Assembly (NCBI GenBank): GCA_040390065.1
Contig: JAZJZE010000005.1
Coordinates: 32,001 to 96,000 of the forward strand
Reading direction: 5' to 3'
Source: a bacterium
GTDB lineage: Archaea > Thermoplasmatota > E2 > JACPAO01 > JAHFTW01
Length of the DNA: 64,000 nt
In this document: positions 41,184 through 56,652 of the stretch, in pieces
Layout: every line of letters begins with the position of its first letter
Numbering within the stretch: the first letter of the stretch is position 1
Notes under the pieces: generated by a model
Seen by the model: the letters and a program-made list of their open reading frames with translations, nothing else
The model's database searches: none
What the model was told of the DNA's origin: nothing
Program-made: the position numbers and the translations under genes

Positions 41184-42554
41184 ATGATCACCTTCGGTCC
41201 CGCCGGAATCCCGCTGTCGTGCAAGGGGCGCACGGTGCGGGACGGCATCATCTACACGCGCAACCTGGAACTGGATGCGATGGAAGTCCAGTTCGTGCGC
41301 GGCATCCGCATGACGGAGGAGGAGGCCAAGAAGGTCCGCGAGACGGCCCAGCAAGCGGGCGTCGAGCTCCACGTCAAGGCTCCGTATTACATCAACCTGG
41401 CCGGCGACGAGGCCAACGTCGAGATGTCCTTCCAGAAGATCCTGGCGACCGGGAAACTGGGCCATGAGATGGGCGCCCAGACGGTCGTCTTCCACCCCGG
41501 CTTCTACGGCGAATTGTCCAAGGAGGAGACGATGGCGCGCATCGTCAAGAACGTGCGCGAACTGCGCAACGTCTTCGTGCGCGAGGCCTGGACGCCGCGG
41601 CTTGGCATCGAGGTCATGGGCAAGCGCAACGTCTTCGGCAGCCTCGAGGAAGTGATCGAGGTCTGCCAGAAGGTGAAGGGCGTCGTCCCCGTCGTCGACT
41701 TTGCGCACATCCACGCGCGCGGCAACGGCATCCTGCAGAATCCCGAGGACTTCGTGGCCGTCTTCGAGAAACTGGCCCCCCTCAAGCTCGACCACTACCT
41801 CCTGCACTTCACGGGCATCCACTACGAGAACGGCAACGCCCGCTACCGCCTGCCCATCAAGAAGGGCGACCTCAAGTTCGAGCCGCTGGTCGACGTGCTC
41901 CTCGACGCCAACATGTCGGCCACCATCATCTCGACCTCGCCCATCCTCGAGCACGACGCGATGTACATGAACATCGTCTTCGACCGCGTCAAGGAACGCC
42001 GCGACGCGCGCGTCGCCAAGGAACTCCAGGACGCGATCAAGCAGGAAGAGCAGGCCAAGGTCGCGGACGAGCGCCGCAAGAAGGCCGACGAGGAGCGCGC
42101 CCGCAAGGCCGACGAGGAGCAGAAGCGCCGCGCCGAGAAGGAAGCCGAGAAGCTGCGCCGCGAAGAGGAGAAGCGCCTCGCCTTGGAGGAAGAGGCTGCC
42201 CGCAAGGCCGCCATCCCCGATTGCGCTGCCGTCACCAAATCCGGCACCCCGTGCAAGAAGAAGGCGGACGGCCGCGGCCGCTTCTGCATCCAGCACAAGG
42301 GCTGGCGCGGCATGACGATCGATGAGCTTCCGGAGAACCAGAAGCCGCGCGTCAAGCAGTCCACGGCGAAGGTCCGCCAGCAGGTGCAGGTGGACGAGTT
42401 CAAGCTCTGGAAGAAGGACGAGCGCTTCGTCTTCATGAAGGAGAAGAAGGAAGGCTACGCCGCCATCTTCAAGGTCCCCGACGGCAAGGAGGTGCGCTAC
42501 AACAAGCAGCGCATCCCCATCCTGCGCGCCGCCGGCGAAGCCGACGAGGAGTGA
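41184..42554 (+). CDS. Endonuclease IV-like (AP endonuclease family 2 TIM barrel) with long C-terminal extension
   Basis: FGPAGIP, MEVQFVRG, APYYINL, VFHPGFY, EVMGK..FGSLEE, DFAHIHAR, HFTGI; then an EK/R coiled coil and CAAVTKSGTPC...FCIQH. Confidence 0.85.
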   Translation: MITFGPAGIPLSCKGRTVRDGIIYTRNLELDAMEVQFVRGIRMTEEEAKKVRETAQQAGVELHVKAPYYINLAGDEANVEMSFQKILATGKLGHEMGAQTVVFHPGFYGELSKEETMARIVKNVRELRNVFVREAWTPRLGIEVMGKRNVFGSLEEVIEVCQKVKGVVPVVDFAHIHARGNGILQNPEDFVAVFEKLAPLKLDHYLLHFTGIHYENGNARYRLPIKKGDLKFEPLVDVLLDANMSATIISTSPILEHDAMYMNIVFDRVKERRDARVAKELQDAIKQEEQAKVADERRKKADEERARKADEEQKRRAEKEAEKLRREEEKRLALEEEAARKAAIPDCAAVTKSGTPCKKKADGRGRFCIQHKGWRGMTIDELPENQKPRVKQSTAKVRQQVQVDEFKLWKKDERFVFMKEKKEGYAAIFKVPDGKEVRYNKQRIPILRAAGEADEE

Positions 42555-42588
42555 GTCGCACGCACGCGGGCACCGAGGGCTGGACGGC

Positions 42589-43134
42589 ATGAAGTTCACG
42601 GAGCCCCTCGACTACATCGAGGCCGCCGCCCGCAAGACGCTCGAGCTCAACAAGGAGGATCTCGAGGCCTTCGTGAAGGTCCTGCAGCCGGCCCGCCGCG
42701 TCTTCCTCTACGGTCGCGGCCGTTCGGGCTTCGTGGCGCGGGCGTTTGCCGTCCGCCTCATGCACCTCGGCTACCAGACGTACGTCATCGGCGAGACCAT
42801 CACGGCGCCGGTCAAGCGCGACGACGTCGTCATCCTCGTGTCCGGCTCCGGCACGACGTACCCAGTCGTCATGACGGCCGAGCTCGGCCGCCGCCAGGGC
42901 GCGACGGTCGTGGCCATCACGGCGCAGCCCGAATCCGACATCGCGCGCTTGGCCCACGTGGTCGTCCCCATCATCCCGCCCGAAGGCAACGGCGACCGCG
43001 CCCGGCTTGCCCCCCTCGGCACGCTGTTCGAGACGAGCGCATGGCTGTTCTTCGACGCCGTGGTCGCCTTGCTGATGGAGACGCTTGGGGAGACGGAGGC
43101 GTCGATGATGCGACGCCATGCTACGCTCGAGTAG
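42589..43134 (+). CDS. hxlB: 6-phospho-3-hexuloisomerase (SIS)
   Basis: GRGRSG..ARAFAVRLMHLG, VIGETIT, SGSGTT, APLGTLFE, RHATLE. Confidence 0.9.
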   Translation: MKFTEPLDYIEAAARKTLELNKEDLEAFVKVLQPARRVFLYGRGRSGFVARAFAVRLMHLGYQTYVIGETITAPVKRDDVVILVSGSGTTYPVVMTAELGRRQGATVVAITAQPESDIARLAHVVVPIIPPEGNGDRARLAPLGTLFETSAWLFFDAVVALLMETLGETEASMMRRHATLE

Positions 43135-43340
43135 GCCGAAGGCCACGAGAGCGTGTTTGGCGTCGCAGCGATGCGAAGCGAGCGGACCGGCCGGCCCGCA
43201 AGGGCCGGGCGGGGAGAAGGCATGCGACGCTCGAGTGAGCAGGGCGAACGAGCGCGCTTGCTTTCGCAGCGATGCGTAGCGAGCGGACCCGGCCGGCCCG
43301 CAAGGGCCGGGCGGGGCGACGCCGTGCTCCGGTGGAATGA
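43111..43340 (+). repeat. Tandem array: hxlB last 8 codons x3, separated by two ~52-nt hairpin repeats
   Basis: TCGCAGCGATGCG(A/T)AGCGAGCGGACC(C)GGCCGGCCCGCAAGGGCCGGGCGGGG at 43163-43214 and 43264-43316. Confidence 0.85.
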
Positions 43341-43343
43341 TTC

Positions 43344-46300
43344 TCAGCGCTTGCGCCCGGCGGCCACGATGGCAGCCACGAGGATGGCGGCCAGGACGAT
43401 GGCGCCAGCCCCGATGGCCCACATTGCAACTCCGGATGTACCGGGGGAGGACACGTCACGGGCGCGCGCAGCGGAAGCGACCGTCGTCGGGCCTTGGAAC
43501 ACCTGTGTCGCGCCCGAGCCTTCGTGGGCCTTCATGCTGATAGTGTAGCCGCCGGGCGTCGCATAGCGGTGGGTCGCGGCGCCCTGCGACGTCTCCGCTG
43601 GCGTGCCATCGCCGAAGTCCCAATCGTAGGAGGTCGCGGAGACGGTCGGCGTGACGCTGACGAGACCGTCGTCGCCCTGCACGACCGTGAAGCCCTCGAA
43701 TGTCCCTGACGGACCCGATCCGGGCGAGATTGGCGTGGACGTCGGCGAGGCGGCGTCCGTGACCTGGATCTCGACTTGGTCCATTGCGCTCACGAGGCCG
43801 TCGTCGACGACGAGACTGAAGCGGTACGTCCCTGGAGCCACGGCGGCAAACGACGCGGTCTGCTGCTGTGCATCCGACAGCACGGCGGATGGTCCGGCGA
43901 CCTGCATCCACTGATACGTGAGGAGGTCGCCGTCGGGGTCGGACGATGCGGTGCCATCCAGCATCACCGTCGCTCCGACGCTGGCCGGCTCGGGGACGAG
44001 GATGGTCGCCGTGGGCGCCGCGTTCGTCGGGCGCACCGTCACCATCACGCCGTCGAGGGCCCGCGCCGAGCCGTCGCTTGCCGCGACCTCGAAATACAGC
44101 GTCGCGACCGGGCCGTCGAAGGAGGGCGCCTTGAAACTCAACGTCGGCGTGTCGGCTCCGGACAGGGCTGCGGCTGGCCCGGCGGTCTGCGTCCACGACC
44201 AGAGGACAGCGCCGCTTGCGCCGGTCGCGGTGGCTTGCAGTGACACATCCGATCCCGTGGCCGTCGTCCGGTCAGCGCCGGCGCTCACCGCCAGCAGTTG
44301 GCCGCTTCCTCCCAGATCCCCGCCGGAGCCGGCGGATCCACCGCTCGCGCCGCCCGAGCCCTGCGAGCCGCCGGATGTGGGCGGGTTCTGCGGCGGCGGC
44401 GCGCCTCCCGTTGGGGCGACGACTGAGATGGCCTTGCACGTCGGGCTGCCCTCGGCGCCGTATGAGTCGATGGCGGACAGGCAGACGGTCGCCTGCCCGA
44501 CCGTCCCGAAGATGTGGTCTGGCGCGTGCGACGTGGACTTGTAGCCGTCCCCGAAGTTCCAGTTCCATGCCACGACGGAGTCGCCCGGGTCCGAGTCCGT
44601 GGAGCTGTCGACGAATGTGACGCTGTTGCCGACCACGACGGTCGTGGGGGAGGCGGAGAATCGGGCAACGGGCGGCACGTCGGGGGCGACGTTGATGGTC
44701 ACCGTGGCGCACGGACTGTCCAGGGGGTCGGGGTCTGTCACCTTGTAGGTGAACGTCACGGGTCCCGTGAACGAGGCCGGCGCGGCGTAGATGAAGTGGC
44801 CATCGGCTGCGATGGGCGGCGTGCCGACGAGGCTGCCCGTCGTCGGGAACACGCAGACGCTTGGGACCACGGTGTCGCCGTCGGTGTCGCCGTCGTTTGC
44901 GAGCACGGGCGAAAGACCTCGGGCCAGCGTGCTCATGGAGTAGCCCGACGCCGCGTTGTACGTGTCGTCCCCGGCGTAGGGTTTGATGATCGTGCAGGCG
45001 ACGGTGAGCGTCACTTGCACCGGCGCACTGTATGTCGGCGGGGTCAGGCCGGTCGGGCTGTTGTCGTCGAGGAGTTCGTACTTGAACGAGTCCGTGCCAC
45101 AGAAGTGCACGTTCGGGATGTACCTGAACGAGCCATCCGACGAGATGACGGGGCTTGTGCCGGTGCCGTCGCCCTTGAGGAGCTGACCGGACGACGGACC
45201 CGTGAACACGACGGCGTTGTCCTGGCTGATGTGCGATGGCACGGGCACGGGGCTCGCGAGGTCGTCGCGGTCCTTCTCGCCAGAGCTGCACTTGAGGCCG
45301 AACGGGGGCGACCCAGTGCACGTGGCGGGCACGCCGAAGTAGGATGGCGTCACGGCTGCGCAACTCGTCTGGGGCAGCGGGCTGCAGTCCTCGTCGACGT
45401 TGTAGGCATCGGCGGTCGCGATGGGAACGTCCGCGATGCACGTGACCTGGATCGTGGCCTTGGCCGCCGTGGCGCTGAACGTCGACCCGTCCTTCACCTT
45501 GAACGTGAATGCATCGTCGTTGCCGACGGAGAAGGCCGGACCGTTGCAGTAGTCGTCGTTCGGCTGGTACTTGACGTCGTACGTCGGCGACGCGGCCGCA
45601 GTCACCGTGTTGCAACTCGGCGGGTTGCCCTTGAGAACGCCGCGGGTCGGGTTGGATGCGATGCAGAAGTACATGGGGTCGCCGGGATCCGCGTCGGTTC
45701 CAGCTAGCGTGATGGTCGCGTACGGAGAAGCGCAGCCGGATGCCGGCGTCGTGCTGCAGTCCTCGTCGACGGTGTACGTCGCCGGGGTCGCGACGGGAGC
45801 CTGGTTGGCCGGGGGTGCGGCGCCGCGGTAGTACCGCACGGCCACGCTGTTGAGGGTCCAATCCGACGACGCGCTCGAGTCCAGCCAGGTGAGGCCGCTG
45901 TTGCCCGTATTGTCCTGCAGGCCACCGATGGCGTGGTGGTTGTCGTCCACGGGCGCGACGGATTGGTAGTGCACCTCGATGGAGTCGTCCACCTCGAACA
46001 GCTTGATCTCCCAAGAACCGGGACTCGACGAGGATGGACTGTAGTACGGCACGTTGTTCATTTCGTAGATGAAGACGCGGTTGGGCGACGTGCCGACCAC
46101 TTGGTAGTAGGTGCAAACGCAGCTCCCAGAATTCAAGTCCGTCCAGTACGCGGACACGAAGTTGTAGGGGCCGCAGCACGAGGACGGGATGGTCTGCGGC
46201 GTGTAGCTCGTGCAAGTGCCCGCGTCAAAGCACAGGTAGCCGTTCGAGGCCAGTTCGACCTTCTGGACTGCGTTGCCACAGAAATCGAATTCCCATGCCC

Positions 46301-46547
46301 CGGGAAGCGGGGGCGGCAGCGCCGACAGGCTCACCGACGTCGAGACGTCATCGCCCGCGGGGCCCGCTGTGCCCGTCGTCGAGATGTCGACGAAATCGTA
46401 GGCGGGGCCGCCGCCTGAGTTGCTGTCGATGAAATAGTACCCGCAGCCATCGGGACCCCCCGTGTTGGCCGATGCGGGGTGGACCAGCAACAGGAGAGTC
46501 GTGGCCGCCGCGGCCGCTAGCAAGAACCCAAGAATGCGCCCAACCAT
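43344..46547 (-). CDS. Large surface adhesin-like protein with Ig-like (Big_9/tandem-95) and PKD domains and C-terminal TM
   Basis: Signal peptide; NQAPVA..YTVDED, GTDSFKY, WNFGDG, SSDPDGDLLTYQWMQVAGP motifs. Confidence 0.85.
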   Translation of the reverse strand: MVGRILGFLLAAAAATTLLLLVHPASANTGGPDGCGYYFIDSNSGGGPAYDFVDISTTGTAGPAGDDVSTSVSLSALPPPLPGAWEFDFCGNAVQKVELASNGYLCFDAGTCTSYTPQTIPSSCCGPYNFVSAYWTDLNSGSCVCTYYQVVGTSPNRVFIYEMNNVPYYSPSSSSPGSWEIKLFEVDDSIEVHYQSVAPVDDNHHAIGGLQDNTGNSGLTWLDSSASSDWTLNSVAVRYYRGAAPPANQAPVATPATYTVDEDCSTTPASGCASPYATITLAGTDADPGDPMYFCIASNPTRGVLKGNPPSCNTVTAAASPTYDVKYQPNDDYCNGPAFSVGNDDAFTFKVKDGSTFSATAAKATIQVTCIADVPIATADAYNVDEDCSPLPQTSCAAVTPSYFGVPATCTGSPPFGLKCSSGEKDRDDLASPVPVPSHISQDNAVVFTGPSSGQLLKGDGTGTSPVISSDGSFRYIPNVHFCGTDSFKYELLDDNSPTGLTPPTYSAPVQVTLTVACTIIKPYAGDDTYNAASGYSMSTLARGLSPVLANDGDTDGDTVVPSVCVFPTTGSLVGTPPIAADGHFIYAAPASFTGPVTFTYKVTDPDPLDSPCATVTINVAPDVPPVARFSASPTTVVVGNSVTFVDSSTDSDPGDSVVAWNWNFGDGYKSTSHAPDHIFGTVGQATVCLSAIDSYGAEGSPTCKAISVVAPTGGAPPPQNPPTSGGSQGSGGASGGSAGSGGDLGGSGQLLAVSAGADRTTATGSDVSLQATATGASGAVLWSWTQTAGPAAALSGADTPTLSFKAPSFDGPVATLYFEVAASDGSARALDGVMVTVRPTNAAPTATILVPEPASVGATVMLDGTASSDPDGDLLTYQWMQVAGPSAVLSDAQQQTASFAAVAPGTYRFSLVVDDGLVSAMDQVEIQVTDAASPTSTPISPGSGPSGTFEGFTVVQGDDGLVSVTPTVSATSYDWDFGDGTPAETSQGAATHRYATPGGYTISMKAHEGSGATQVFQGPTTVASAARARDVSSPGTSGVAMWAIGAGAIVLAAILVAAIVAAGRKR

Positions 46548-46733
46548 CCAATCGACCACCGCCGGGAGGCGGACAGAAGGGCGACCGGCTTCTGCGCCTT
46601 AACGGCGTCGCCGCGGTCCCCAATCATCTACAGCCTATCACGGCAATTCGCCCAGGAAGGGCGCCGGAAAGCCCAGCGAACCGCACGTTCTTGCGCGTCC
46701 TGCTGCGAAAACACGCGTGGACGCTGGGCGAGG

Positions 46734-46799
46734 TCAGAACGGCCGCTTCGGCAAACCCTTCGCCGCATCGAAGTTGACCCAGACCTTCACGCCGCACCA
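46734..46799 (-). repeat. Duplicate of the last 22 codons (including stop) of the thyX-like gene
   Basis: 63/64 identity between 46736-46799 and 46882-46945; the one difference is synonymous (Val GTC/GTG) and the stop is TGA vs TAG. Confidence 0.95.
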
Positions 46800-46879
46800 C
46801 GACCTGCAGTCAGGTCGATCAACACGGGTGGGACCTCCGGCTTTCCAAGCCTGCGGCCCCACGCCACTGCTTGAGGTCT

Positions 46880-48649
46880 CTAGAACGGCCGCTTCGGCAA
46901 ACCCTTCGCCGCATCGAAGTTCACCCAGACCTTCACGCCGCACCATTTGTCCCCTTCCGGGCAGCAGGCCACAGGGTCGTCCTGCTTGTCGCGCGGTTGG
47001 CGGGGCGCCACGAAGCTGCACGGCGGGCCCAGCCAACGCGTGAGTTCGGGGTGAGCCGCCTGCGCCTGGCGAAGCTCGGCGATGGACGCGTCGAAGATCT
47101 CCTTCTGCGCGTTGAAGCACGTTCGCAGCCGCCACTTGTGGATGAACGCCAACAGATCGCCGGATTGGGTGAACGTGATGTTCGTCGCATTCGGGAGCAA
47201 GTAGGTGCAGTCGTCCGCCGGGATGCCCCGTTCACGCAGCTTGGCGATGGCAGCCCAAAGCGCTGCGATGGCGTCGTCGTAGACGCGGCGGCCGTCGGCG
47301 TCCGCAGCGACAATCTCGGGCACGTGCACGTCGGGCTTGGCCGAGAGACAGCGCGTCAAGACGGGGCGCGTACCTGGGGTCATGCGGTGGCGCTGGTCCT
47401 GCGCGTAGGCCGTCAGGCTGAGGCGCTTGCGGAACGTGTAGTGCACGTGGTGCAGGGCGCGAAGGACCGGGCTGTGGTCCCACGTGTTGAGGGTGTCCGC
47501 CCACGCGGCGTTTCGCGCGGGGTCCATGACTTCGCGCAGGAGTTCGGCGTCCGGGAGGGCGGAACCCGTCGTCTCGCGGACCGCCTGCAGGACCACGGCC
47601 GCGGCGTTGGGCGTCGCGGCCAAGAGAACAGCGGGGGTTCCGGCGGGGATGCCGTCGGCTGGCTGCGACGAGACCGTGGCGCCCGACAACATCGTCTCGA
47701 CGTGCTCTGCGCGTGGCCGCGTCTGCTCCTCGATCTGGCCGACGAACTGCGGGTCGACGCGGCGGATCTCCTCGACCATCTGGTCCACGATGGTGCGCGC
47801 CTCGCGGGCGGCGTCGCCGGCCTCGCACATGCGGATGTAGCGCAGCAGCACGATGCCGGACACCGTGTGGTAAAGTTGCGTCGCGGCCGCGATGGGGATG
47901 ACGTAGCGCGCCATCTCCTGCGACTTCTTCTCCGCCTCCTTGTGGATGGTCTTGTCCGACTGGCCCTTGATGCGGCCAATCGCCGTCATCGTGCGGATGT
48001 TGGCATCCACGAGGCTGTCGCGCAGAGTGTGGTAGGCGTCCCAGGCCGTGCGGACGGCGCCCTCGTAGGCGGCGCGGGCTTGCGGATCTGCGCGCACCGT
48101 CGCAGGGATGTGCACCTCGGCGCGCTTCATCTCGACGTAGCGCTGGCTCTGCTGCTCCGAGTTGTAGAACGTGTGGTTATGGAGGAAGGACTCGACGACG
48201 TTGCGGCTGACGCCCTCCAACGCGAAGACGAAGGTCGGGTGCTGGAACGGCGTGTGGTGGCCGGCCTCGTAGATGCCGTGCGCGATGCGGGCGTCGCCGG
48301 CCGAGCGTTGGCGCGCCAAGTCGGCAAATGCGGCGAGCGCCGTGCGCACATCCAGACTGGACACCTTGAGCGACACGCGTTCAACAATCTGCACGCGCTT
48401 GTCGTGCGGCGTGTCGAGGCGACCAATCTCGTCGAGTTCCGCCTTGAACGACGGCAGCGCGTCCAAGAGCGACTTGCGCTCGCGTTCGCCCTTCGAGTCG
48501 AGGCGGCCGACGAAGACGAAGTCCTGCGCGTAGCAGGTGCGCGCCGACGCCACGGACAATTCGTAGGGACGCGCCGTGTGGGCGACCAGGCGGACGCGGG
48601 GCTCCGCGACGAGGATGTCGCGCGCCCCCGTCGATTCCAGCTGGGCCAC
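46880..48649 (-). CDS. thyX: FAD-dependent thymidylate synthase with two tandem ThyX domains
   Basis: Domain 1 GHHTPFQH..F.LEGVSR...QQSQRYV...MARYVIP; domain 2 AQDQRHR...YLLPNA...LRTCFNAQKEI. Confidence 0.85.
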   Translation of the reverse strand: MAQLESTGARDILVAEPRVRLVAHTARPYELSVASARTCYAQDFVFVGRLDSKGERERKSLLDALPSFKAELDEIGRLDTPHDKRVQIVERVSLKVSSLDVRTALAAFADLARQRSAGDARIAHGIYEAGHHTPFQHPTFVFALEGVSRNVVESFLHNHTFYNSEQQSQRYVEMKRAEVHIPATVRADPQARAAYEGAVRTAWDAYHTLRDSLVDANIRTMTAIGRIKGQSDKTIHKEAEKKSQEMARYVIPIAAATQLYHTVSGIVLLRYIRMCEAGDAAREARTIVDQMVEEIRRVDPQFVGQIEEQTRPRAEHVETMLSGATVSSQPADGIPAGTPAVLLAATPNAAAVVLQAVRETTGSALPDAELLREVMDPARNAAWADTLNTWDHSPVLRALHHVHYTFRKRLSLTAYAQDQRHRMTPGTRPVLTRCLSAKPDVHVPEIVAADADGRRVYDDAIAALWAAIAKLRERGIPADDCTYLLPNATNITFTQSGDLLAFIHKWRLRTCFNAQKEIFDASIAELRQAQAAHPELTRWLGPPCSFVAPRQPRDKQDDPVACCPEGDKWCGVKVWVNFDAAKGLPKRPF

Positions 48650-55249: not shown

Positions 55250-55315
55250 CTAGTTCTTCAACGGCATCTTCTCGCAAGCGGCTTCCAGGATATCCATGCC
55301 CGCATCGATCTTCGC
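55250..55315 (-). repeat. Recoded duplicate of the last 22 codons (including stop) of the aminotransferase gene
   Basis: Encodes AKIDAGMDILEAACEKMPLKN* vs gene ...PLRN*; 8 differences, 7 synonymous and 1 R/K. Confidence 0.95.
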
Positions 55316-55485: not shown

Positions 55486-56652
55486 CTAGTTCCTCAAAGG
55501 CATTTTTTCGCATGCGGCTTCGAGAATGTCCATGCCCGCATCGATCTTCGCAACACTGCAGGCATAGCTGAATCGCAAGTGCCCTTCGCCAAGGCGACCG
55601 AAGGCCGAACCCGGGCTGCAGATGAGACCCTTCGCAGCCAAGTTGAGCGCCAACTCCTCGCTCGGGATGTCGAAGTCATACTTGGGGAAGGCGTAGAACG
55701 CTCCGCCAGGCTTCTGCATCTTGAGGCCACGCATCTTCTGCAGACGCTTCGTGATGCGGTCTCGGCGCTTGCGGAACTCGGCCAGCATGTTGTCCGCCTG
55801 CGTCTGCGGGCCTTCGAGGGCGGCCACACACGCCCACTGGATGGGTGTGGGCGTGCAGGCGACGGTGTAGTAGTGCATCGTCTCGATGGCCTTCACGTAC
55901 TCGCGCTTCGTCGCGATGGCCCCGAGCCGCCAGCCCGTCAGGGCGTAGGTCTTGGAGAACGAATTGACCCAGATGACGTTGTCCATGTGGCTGAGGAAAC
56001 TATGGTGCGGCGCGTCGTAGGAGAGGAAGTCGTACACCTCGTCGGCGACGACCATGATGTCCTTGTCCTCGGCGACTTCGCAGACGGCGCGCACGGCGGC
56101 CTTGTCCATGCACGCGCCCGTCGGGTTCGACGGCGTGTTTATGATGAGGAGCTTCGTCCTCGGCGTGATCTTGGCCTGGATCTCGTCGACGTCCGGCTGG
56201 TACTTGTTCTCCGCCGTCAGGCTGTACGGGATAGGGAAGCCTCCGCACAGGCGCGCCTGGCTTGGATAGAGGACGAAGCCTGGGTCGGGGACGAGGACCT
56301 CGTCGCCATGGTCGACGAACGTGTGGTTCACGGTCATGAGGGCCTGGGTGGCCCCGGCTGTGATGATGATGTTCTGCGCCGAGACGTTCTCGCCGCGGTA
56401 GTTCTTGATGCGCGTGGCGACGGCTTCGCGAAGCTGCGGCAGCCCAAGGCTCGGGCCGTAGTGGTTCTTGCCTGCCGCCACGGCGTCCGTGAGGGCCTTG
56501 GCGATGTGGGGGGCCGGCTCGAAGTCCGGTTCGCCAAGCCCCATGTTGATGGAGTCCTTGCCGGCCAGCTCGAACATCTTGCGAATGCCGCTCATCTCGA
56601 TGCCTAGGAGGCGCCGGGCCACGAGGCTCTGGCCCGAGCGGGAGACGGCCAC
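55486..56652 (-). CDS. Class I/II PLP-dependent (aspartate-type) aminotransferase
   Basis: GLGEPDF, INTPSNPTG, ADEVY, SFSKTYALTGWRLG, GAFY, LRFSYA; start chosen from TATA spacing. Confidence 0.92.
   Translation of the reverse strand: MAVSRSGQSLVARRLLGIEMSGIRKMFELAGKDSINMGLGEPDFEPAPHIAKALTDAVAAGKNHYGPSLGLPQLREAVATRIKNYRGENVSAQNIIITAGATQALMTVNHTFVDHGDEVLVPDPGFVLYPSQARLCGGFPIPYSLTAENKYQPDVDEIQAKITPRTKLLIINTPSNPTGACMDKAAVRAVCEVAEDKDIMVVADEVYDFLSYDAPHHSFLSHMDNVIWVNSFSKTYALTGWRLGAIATKREYVKAIETMHYYTVACTPTPIQWACVAALEGPQTQADNMLAEFRKRRDRITKRLQKMRGLKMQKPGGAFYAFPKYDFDIPSEELALNLAAKGLICSPGSAFGRLGEGHLRFSYACSVAKIDAGMDILEAACEKMPLRN

Follow-up and report, generated by a model that had tools for sequence, protein, structure and literature searches.

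Two stacked and probably integrative mini-elements of about 100 nt behind the hxlB gene of an uncultured Thermoplasmatota archaeon

The prophage e14 integrates in the 3′ end of the Escherichia coli icd gene and supplies a replacement end, the displaced end, icdC, staying behind as a pseudogene; the icd and icdC ends exhibit multiple synonymous differences (PMC13626634). We describe a locus of related logic in a 64,000-nt stretch of DNA (assembly GCA_040390065.1, contig JAZJZE010000005.1, positions 32,001 to 96,000 of the forward strand), which is called the window hereafter and whose own numbering is used unless a contig or locus is named. It comes from an uncultured Thermoplasmatota archaeon, the genome of which (G000) comprises 2.68 Mb in 50 contigs and is 89% complete, the window lying on contig C5. 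Our subject is hxlB, the gene for 6-phospho-3-hexuloisomerase, and the array of two units that follows it. At hxlB, a unit starts with a copy of the gene end (24-25 nt, the tail) and continues, beyond a short apex, with the same tail in inverted form (the anti-tail) and a conserved 52-nt module. We consider it probable (at roughly 0.6) that this array represents two stacked copies of a ~100-nt integrative mini-element that encodes no protein, replaces conserved gene ends and grows from the gene side.

On our analysis, the closest described logic appears to be that of e14 at icd, and the next one that of tandem accretion with recombinase-less elements. Both e14 and phage 21 at icd resemble the present units in that the end of a housekeeping gene is replaced with silent changes and the displaced end is kept on the far side; the parallel extends to one of the targets found here, an isocitrate/isopropylmalate dehydrogenase gene. 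Unlike the units, e14 is ~15 kb long, carries its own integrase and excises, whereas the units measure ~100 nt, bear no gene, combine an inverted tail with a shared hairpin module and occur at ~30 gene ends. In the accretion of streptococcal integrative conjugative elements (ICEs), as well as integrative mobilizable elements (IMEs), the cis-mobilizable elements (CIMEs) are flanked by attachment (att) sites, have no recombinase gene and stand in tandem with recombinase-bearing elements. The units share with CIMEs the att-type repeats, the lack of a recombinase gene and, at a tRNA-Lys gene, a tandem position with an integrase element. CIMEs, however, measure kilobases, result from the decay of one particular ICE and use one att site, whereas the units are ten- to hundredfold smaller and uniform in build, with one module on many targets. 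The mini-element next to the 12.5-kb integrase element shows, by eye, no arm likeness to it. As to tyrosine-recombinase integrative elements at large, their att-type duplication of a gene end is present here, while an own or adjacent recombinase is not. Tandem integration in archaea is mentioned in the accessible part of PMC8371274, which has nothing on miniature or remnant elements. Archaeal tRNA gene fragments are attributed to 9-23 kb insertions or to clustered regularly interspaced short palindromic repeats (CRISPR) in the main text portion of PMC9897764; its supplementary tables, not covered here, might list small cases. Our full-text literature search found no description of gene-less ~100-nt units that replace gene ends.

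The assignment of hxlB, already proposed in a preliminary description made from the sequence, was confirmed by a profile search (TIGR03127; score 179.6 bits, cut-off 160). In the open reading frame (ORF) listing the coding sequence extends from 42589 to 43134 on the plus strand, on which all parts of the array are read as well. Its last 24-25 nt form T1 (43111-43134), the tail in use, which reads RRHATLE* with the stop TAG; it was delimited by sequence and repeat search, and its best duplex is formed with the anti-tail of unit 1. The interval 43135-43166, delimited by fold, duplex and alignment scores, contains the apex of unit 1, a small GCC-GAAG-GGC hairpin, and the anti-tail T1′ (~43146-43166), an imperfect inverted copy of T1; in the fold, 43110-43134 pairs with 43146-43166. 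The module M1 (43163-43214; nhmmer E = 5.5e-12, BLAST and folds) presents, in this order, a conserved linear motif with GCGAAGC, then GAGCGGACC, a hairpin of 9 bp that contains a G.G mismatch and has GCAA as its loop, and finally GGGG. Directly behind it stands the orphan tail T2 (43215-43238), again RRHATLE* with the stop TGA, which has its best duplex with the unit-2 anti-tail and differs from T1 by 6 nt changes (25% of positions), all silent, TAG→TGA among them. In the same way, unit 2 continues with its apex and anti-tail (43239-43267; fold and duplex scores), the anti-tail T2′ being an inverted T2 copy at ~43249-43267, and with the module M2 (43264-43316; E = 2.3e-11), which has one extra C compared to M1 and is 96% identical to it across the aligned part. 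Unit 1 and unit 2 are unlike in their left halves. The distal orphan T3 (43317-43340; sequence and repeat search) is decayed and reads RRRAPVE*.

Only 3 nt separate the end of T3 from the stop codon of a convergent gene on the minus strand (43344-46559; ORF listing and sequence), which codes for a large PKD-repeat-like membrane-anchored surface protein, the family being read from the translation. The entire 210-nt spacer therefore consists of the two units and T3. The repeat search returned the tails as a family of three copies, spaced by 104 and 102 nt, each unit being ~102 nt long; Tandem Repeats Finder did not report a 102-nt period at the hxlB array. The preliminary description had already noted the three tails, i.e. 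RRHATLE*, its version with six silent changes and the decayed RRRAPVE*, as well as the same 52-nt repeat directly in front of each orphan, and both observations were reproduced in coordinates (43163-43214 and 43264-43316 for the repeat) and in sequence.

Each unit can be folded into three hairpins. The largest is the tail paired with the left half of the unit, the second is small and contains the GCGAAGC-type motif, and the third is the module hairpin, of 9 bp with the G.G mismatch close to its base, GAGCGGACC on the 5′ side and GGGG on the 3′ side. The predicted energies are −69.1 kcal/mol for unit 1 (z = −6.98 against dinucleotide shuffles) and −58.3 kcal/mol for unit 2 (z = −4.22). The unit-1 anti-tail yields duplex energies of −32.4 kcal/mol with T1, −21.1 with T2 and −30.8 with T3, and the unit-2 anti-tail −17.6, −27.2 and −17.7 kcal/mol, respectively. 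Each anti-tail at hxlB thus pairs with the tail directly upstream of it and not with the downstream one, which defines the unit as tail, apex, anti-tail and module, with T3 left over at the end.

The inverted tail copy, i.e. the left half of each unit, is absent from the preliminary description, in which the hairpin repeat marked the junction in front of the tail that follows it. The orphans do stand directly behind the repeat, but the phase of the unit is the one given above and not hairpin plus following tail. The GGCCC-GCAA-GGGCC hairpin singled out there is present; its GNRA loop, however, is not conserved, the module copies elsewhere carrying other loops, and we take it to be incidental. 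Across the copies, the apical stems differ with the pairing kept by compensatory changes. The anti-tail covers the same block as the duplicated tail wherever an anti-tail exists, over a wide range of lengths: ~61 against 68 nt at secY, 29 against 34 nt at the GAPDH-like gene and 18-25 against 19-26 nt at tRNA genes. It starts 0-2 nt from the duplication boundary in 10 of the 16 first tRNA units.

The module copies of G000 and of its relatives nearly all bear a G.G mismatch at the third position from the hairpin base (e.g. 43188-43212 in the window). Judged from the sequences, this conserved mismatch looks like a structure-specific recognition mark. Hairpins with conserved mismatched bases, recognised by their structure, are known from integron attC sites and from the attP of the CTX phage, in which the stem mimics the double-stranded chromosomal target. 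The units share with these systems the mismatch hairpin and the presumed polar growth of the arrays, and their tail:anti-tail stem could mimic the target. By contrast, attC and CTX attP depend on IntI or XerCD, each with a single fixed target (attI or dif), and their integration involves no duplicated gene end of 14 to >100 nt, while the units here are known as double-stranded sequence only.

The comparison of tails with their orphans points to an origin of the copies in different lineages. Seventeen tail/orphan pairs were selected by their coordinates; G000 supplied 13 of them and relatives the other 4, the pairs of the relatives L053 and L059 not being included. They contain 67 nucleotide differences, which correspond to 48 synonymous and 9 non-synonymous codon differences, i.e. 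a synonymous share of 0.84, whereas random substitutions gave a mean of 0.25 and a maximum of 0.48 in 3000 simulations. The stop codon is swapped for a different stop in 6 of the 17 pairs (null mean 0.89, maximum 5). The GAPDH-like tails are identical over their 33 nt. The mostly silent differences together with the stop swaps indicate that the copies diverged each as the end of a translated gene, i.e. in different lineages, and they rule out copying in place followed by drift. At hxlB itself, T1 and T2 differ at 25% of positions and the neighbouring modules at ~4%. The hxlB product ends in RHATLE* in every relative whose gene end could be read (18 of 18), up to the level of the class, and T3 is therefore not an ancestral variant.

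A genome-wide search showed that the 52-nt module is not confined to hxlB. It lies behind a GAPDH-like gene on contig C43, where two units and three copies of a 33-nt tail are found, and behind tRNA-Glu on contig C11, with an 18-nt duplication; in both cases it precedes an orphan tail, which is what the preliminary description had proposed to look for. It also stands at a gene start on C5, adjoining an 11-nt duplication. These module copies on unrelated targets are ~90% identical.

Orphan end copies were then counted irrespective of the module. A copy of the last 14 nt, located 40-400 nt downstream, was found at 17 of the 52 tRNA genes, one of the 17 being a tRNA-Tyr gene pair, compared to 0-1 in five shuffled controls. 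A downstream copy of the last 15 nt with ≤2 mismatches and followed by a stop codon was found at 11 of 2012 protein-gene ends, and none in each of ten shuffled-tail controls. The protein targets are conserved housekeeping genes, coding for SecY, ThyX, the GAPDH-like protein, a class I/II aminotransferase, an RFC-like ATPase and COX2 and, further, for isocitrate/isopropylmalate dehydrogenase, an aIF5B-like GTPase and a CoA-binding protein. At hxlB, the GAPDH-like gene, SecY and 16 tRNA sites, the direct repeats flanking the insert run to the end of the target gene, which is left intact. The duplicated block varies from ~3 to >110 nt and always ends at the gene end, the tRNA duplications starting in the T-loop or T-stem, and the unit sizes are narrow, ~60-130 nt at most sites. 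At least two additional module families are present in the genome, one of them with GATCGACC-type hairpins and no clear anti-tail, and the tRNA-type units exhibit long hairpins different from those of the M module.

Small, gene-less, hairpin-forming and dispersed sequences, some of them in or beside genes without breaking them, are likewise found among miniature inverted-repeat transposable elements (MITEs), repetitive extragenic palindromes (REP/REPIN) and the Rickettsia palindromic elements. These differ from the units in that their target duplication is of fixed length or lacking and that a transposase goes with their terminal inverted repeats or REP hairpins. The block duplicated here runs over ~3 to >110 nt, always to a gene end, and is re-coded, and no Y1/HUH transposase was found in the genome.

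Two further protein targets lie in the window, downstream of the array. The ThyX gene (PF02511, 3.3e-55; minus strand) ends at 46880, and its last 66 nt recur at 46734-46799, beyond an 80-nt insert (46800-46879), with one synonymous change and TAG→TGA as the differences. The insert belongs to another module family, with one hairpin of the form GTGGGGCC...GGTCCCAC and another, GATCGACCTG...CAGGTCG, that abuts the orphan, and exhibits no clear anti-tail. The class I/II aminotransferase gene (PF00155, 1.5e-65; minus strand) ends at 55486, and its last 66 nt recur at 55250-55315, beyond an insert of ~170 nt; seven of the 8 differences between the copies are synonymous, and repeated ACAGATTTC.CAG / AGAATTCC.CAGA-like words occur in the insert and its flank. 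Additionally, the 5′ parts of several tRNA genes are re-copied 140-190 nt upstream (e.g. C2:30059-30300, C6:18053-18273, C5:101141-101420 and C1:288143-288420), so that, with the 3′ copies, both ends of tRNA genes are decorated.

The gene hxlB was found in 56 of the 61 genomes searched (G000 included). Clear hxlB orphan tails with hairpin units occur in three of the 18 relatives read (L029, L038 and L039, from two other genera), with modules different from M, and these orphans differ silently from the local live tail (3 of 3 differences in L029); L026 may hold a decayed one. No hxlB orphan is present in the closest relative, L022 (92% amino-acid identity), or in L025, which is syntenic and keeps the convergent anchor-protein gene. 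A repeat restricted to this site, with a simple old tandem duplication in the relatives, was the counter-case raised in the preliminary description, and it does not agree with independent orphans behind different modules in three relatives and none in L022 and L025. Metagenome sequences yielded no close strain, the best hxlB relative sharing 86% amino-acid identity; of the 8 loci there at which the gene end could be read, two of them with <150 nt downstream, none has an hxlB orphan. In a mosaic comparison, hxlB and its counterpart in the closest relative are 81% identical in DNA, with a third-position value of ~0.55 throughout, and are too diverged for the comparison to be informative. Among the sequencing runs, the whole stretch is present in one alone, its probable source, in the form of contigs that show no differences. 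Further runs from that study contain only the module, on other contigs, and no RNA run with the stretch is listed.

At E ≤ 1e-3, the 52-nt module was detected in 8 of the 31 other genomes of the family and in none of the 29 outside it. An exact module pattern gave 41 loci in species-representative genomes, of which 8 (9 matches) come from records of Thermoplasmatota metagenome-assembled genomes (MAGs) and present fully paired apical stems together with the motif upstream of them. The remaining 33 loci are bacterial, mostly from high-GC actinomycetes; a paired apex is absent from most of them, and they were taken as chance. The pattern gave 0 matches in viral contigs. The anatomy of the module in relatives is like that in G000; one 27-nt anti-tail includes the complement of the live stop codon, the M module abuts tRNA 5′-end copies in mirrored orientation, and one tail duplication of 141 nt contains 15 synonymous differences.

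The following course of events would account for the array. A unit would enter at the 5′ edge of the resident tail, and its incoming tail would be joined in frame to the gene body, forming a new working gene end, while the resident tail would stay intact as an orphan directly behind the module. A second insertion at the same place would shift the first unit and its orphan further downstream. Repeated hits at the gene side would give polar growth, with the most distal tail the oldest and most decayed. At hxlB, T1 would then have arrived with unit 1, T2 would be the tail in use before that and T3 the original resident tail. The units would come from diverged lineages, so that live and orphan tails differ chiefly at silent sites. 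Two successive insertions at one position, the core of the preliminary description, are supported by the decay of the distal tail, the intact RRHATLE* of the middle one and the fit of the anti-tails to their upstream tails, and the polar growth it proposed, as far as it can be read from the sequence, is supported as well. Further arguments for a mobile element are the recurrence of the module behind other tails, the excess of orphan ends over the controls, the coding-type divergence of the tails, the matching extent of tail and anti-tail, the sporadic occurrence in relatives and the compensatory changes in the module hairpin.

Catalysis would most likely be due to a site-specific recombinase acting in trans. 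Of the enzyme families searched for, recombinases alone are present, with six tyrosine recombinase genes and with serine recombinases in a 12.5-kb island, and at tRNA genes elements of ordinary size with an integrase share junctions with the mini-elements. The variable junction sequence leaves room for a homology- or guide-directed mechanism, which may use the anti-tail. A bolder and doubtful version of this idea makes the anti-tail a targeting guide and the tail a rescue, the anti-tail and module forming, as single-stranded DNA or RNA, a guide with a two-hairpin scaffold. The module (GAGCGGACC, the hairpin with its G.G mismatch, and GGGG) would be the binding site of an enzyme, the anti-tail would find the complementary gene end, insertion would occur at the edge of the pairing and the re-coded tail of the unit would keep an essential gene alive, i.e. 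the unit would be a natural programmable 'insert-and-rescue' element. Such a guide would explain why one module serves unrelated targets, why tail and anti-tail cover an equal block and why no conserved core is seen at the junctions.

Several points weigh against an integrative mini-element. The units contain no ORF, and the nearest tyrosine recombinase gene on the same contig lies >140 kb from the hxlB array, six such genes (PF00589) being present in the genome. Reverse transcriptase (PF00078), Cas1 (PF01867), TnpB (PF07282) and Y1 HUH transposase (PF01797) were not detected in the genome, which, at 89% completeness, does not prove these enzyme families absent. The pairing of the anti-tails puts the junction at hxlB at the 5′ edge of the tail, where T1 and T2 have 3 mismatches in their first 7 nt, and hence the identical core of a classical tyrosine recombinase is not visible there; the tails at the GAPDH-like site, in contrast, are identical. 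The bases directly after GGGG have no consensus across targets, so that a single recombinase would need to tolerate many different cores. Given the bending of DNA that it demands, a circle of ~100 bp in double-stranded form is unlikely to serve an integrase as substrate. Two tRNA sites in relatives have the module and yet a duplication of only ~3 nt. Finally, the data are at contig level and from one run, in which presence/absence polymorphism, an excision product or a circular form is not observable.

These points give some room to an enzyme-free origin, which we regard as rather unlikely. The unit would have been born once, by fold-back and template switching in break repair, and would then have spread by homologous recombination with the gene body as left arm and the orphan tail as right arm, arrays growing by unequal recombination between alleles. 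Fold-back predicts that the anti-tail and the duplicated tail cover the same block, as is the case. The lack of an identical core at the hxlB junction, where the incoming tail is whole and comes with its anti-tail, fits a left crossover further up the gene, and no dedicated enzyme was found. A mini-hairpin motif of the GCGAAGC type, known for its exceptional stability, recurs after the tail and after the anti-tail. Nevertheless, the right arm measures merely 14-33 nt at many sites, and the same module at ~90% identity on unrelated targets would need repeated de novo events. The fact that one third of the tRNA genes is hit argues for an efficient, dedicated process, and the tRNA junctions are concentrated at the T-loop/T-stem instead of being spread along the gene.

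Larger elements do share the tRNA junctions with the mini-elements. At tRNA-Lys, the order is tRNA gene, 12.5-kb element, 17-nt orphan, mini-element and second orphan; at tRNA-Glu, it is mini-element, orphan, an insert of ~3.5 kb and another orphan. Ordinary-sized elements with an integrase and mini-elements thus stand in tandem at shared tRNA junctions. The units might be imagined as scars of viruses or plasmids that had integrated with replacement tails and later lost their interior, leaving the arms beside attL and attR, with apex and anti-tail on one side and the module on the other. We find this improbable. In its favour stand the tandems of 12.5-kb integrase elements and the ~3.5-kb insert with mini-elements at shared tRNA junctions, and e14, which replaces the icd end with silent differences (PMC13626634). 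Against it, the unit sizes are narrow, ~60-130 nt at most sites, and the ends of the 12.5-kb element, compared by eye, bear no likeness to the neighbouring mini-element. A search for a full-length element with the module was negative for the genome, for viral contigs (0 matches) and for the near flanks of the 9 archaeal module matches, within loci of 8 kb.

The 12.5-kb element in tRNA-Lys(ctt) (C4:105117-118000, locus L051) has a 17-nt flanking repeat and codes for a tyrosine integrase (L051:957-1886; PF00589, 1.4e-23), a serine recombinase (1902-2849), a second, weak resolvase-like ORF, a SnoaL-like protein and a nucleotidyltransferase.

The stable folds of the units (z = −6.98 and −4.22) and the conservation of the module hairpin through compensatory changes are also what RNA modules selected by the host would exhibit, the hairpins being kept at transcript 3′ ends for termination, processing or stability. 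A comparable architecture is that of the distal repeats of E. coli tyrT, with the RtT RNA (RF00391), where short tandem units behind a tRNA gene end each in a copy of the tRNA 3′ end. In the source consulted, rttR is placed within the tyrT operon and its mode of action is given as unknown. The present units differ from tyrT/RtT in giving no covariance-model match, in standing also at protein genes and tRNA 5′ ends, in bearing an anti-tail and in varying between related genomes. In raw energy, the sense strand folded better in 28 of 33 duplexes, with 101 G.U pairs out of 757 compared to 53 out of 711; after shuffle control, it had no advantage in structure over the antisense strand (17 of 32, p = 0.26). 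A search of 42500-43900 against Rfam gave microRNA models as the best matches, with E = 0.5 or worse and far under the gathering scores, and no family, RtT included, reached E = 0.1. Selection on RNA also leaves unexplained how the units arrived, why the orphans have stop codons and silent-only differences and why close genomes do not have the units. As the whole explanation it is, in our opinion, a poor prospect; a role of the hairpins at RNA 3′ ends may be compatible with mobility and would then not be a full rival.

Local tandem duplication of a 102-nt block by slippage, followed by drift, agrees with the ~2.2 head-to-tail copies at periods of 104 and 102 nt but is contradicted by our results and highly improbable, as the tails differ at 25% of positions, all silently, next to modules that are 96% identical, each anti-tail co-varies with its own tail, the same module stands behind the tails of other genes elsewhere and the silent share over the 17 pairs exceeds that of all 3000 simulations.

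Further candidates were rejected. By eye, no complementary helix that would suit a bulge-helix-bulge (BHB) type intron is present at the junctions. A CRISPR array or casposon does not agree with the absence of a PF01867 match in the 89% complete genome and with 'spacers' that are homologous to one another. Against a diversity-generating retroelement, no PF00078 match was obtained, and the differences are third-codon-position changes of all kinds, where such an element would have them at adenines. A MITE or other DNA transposon is not supported by duplicated blocks that extend over ~3 to >110 nt up to the gene end and have no fixed length, and the silent differences exclude copies made in place. 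For IS200/IS605-TnpB or REP with its REP-associated tyrosine transposase (RAYT), there was no PF01797 or PF07282 match, and long duplications are present.

If the units really move, these mini-elements would be the smallest integrative elements described, their ~100 nt being made up of a new gene end, the mirror image of that end and the hairpin module. In this one archaeon they are found at one in three tRNA genes and at many housekeeping genes, and none is broken. Orphan fragments of tRNA genes and of gene ends in archaeal MAGs are usually read as provirus marks or annotation noise; here they are mostly 100-nt units. Their silent-site differences directly document that diverged lineages have exchanged DNA. 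One module for many targets points to recombination with relaxed or guided target choice, which would be of interest as a tool.

A separate dispersed repeat, with words like GATTCCACAGAA / GATTTCACAGA and sometimes next to a GGCCCCGGTCGGGGCGAGC...GCGATGCGAAGCGAGCGG stretch, was seen at C1:325719-326059, at C9:251790-252090, in the flank of C1:130412 and, in L022 (G004), downstream of hxlB; it could be an element end or a cluster of binding sites. The gene upstream of hxlB (41184-42554, plus strand) codes for an endonuclease IV-like protein, with weak matches to TIGR00587/NF002196 (45 bits, below the cut-off) and a long C-terminal extension rich in Lys and Glu.

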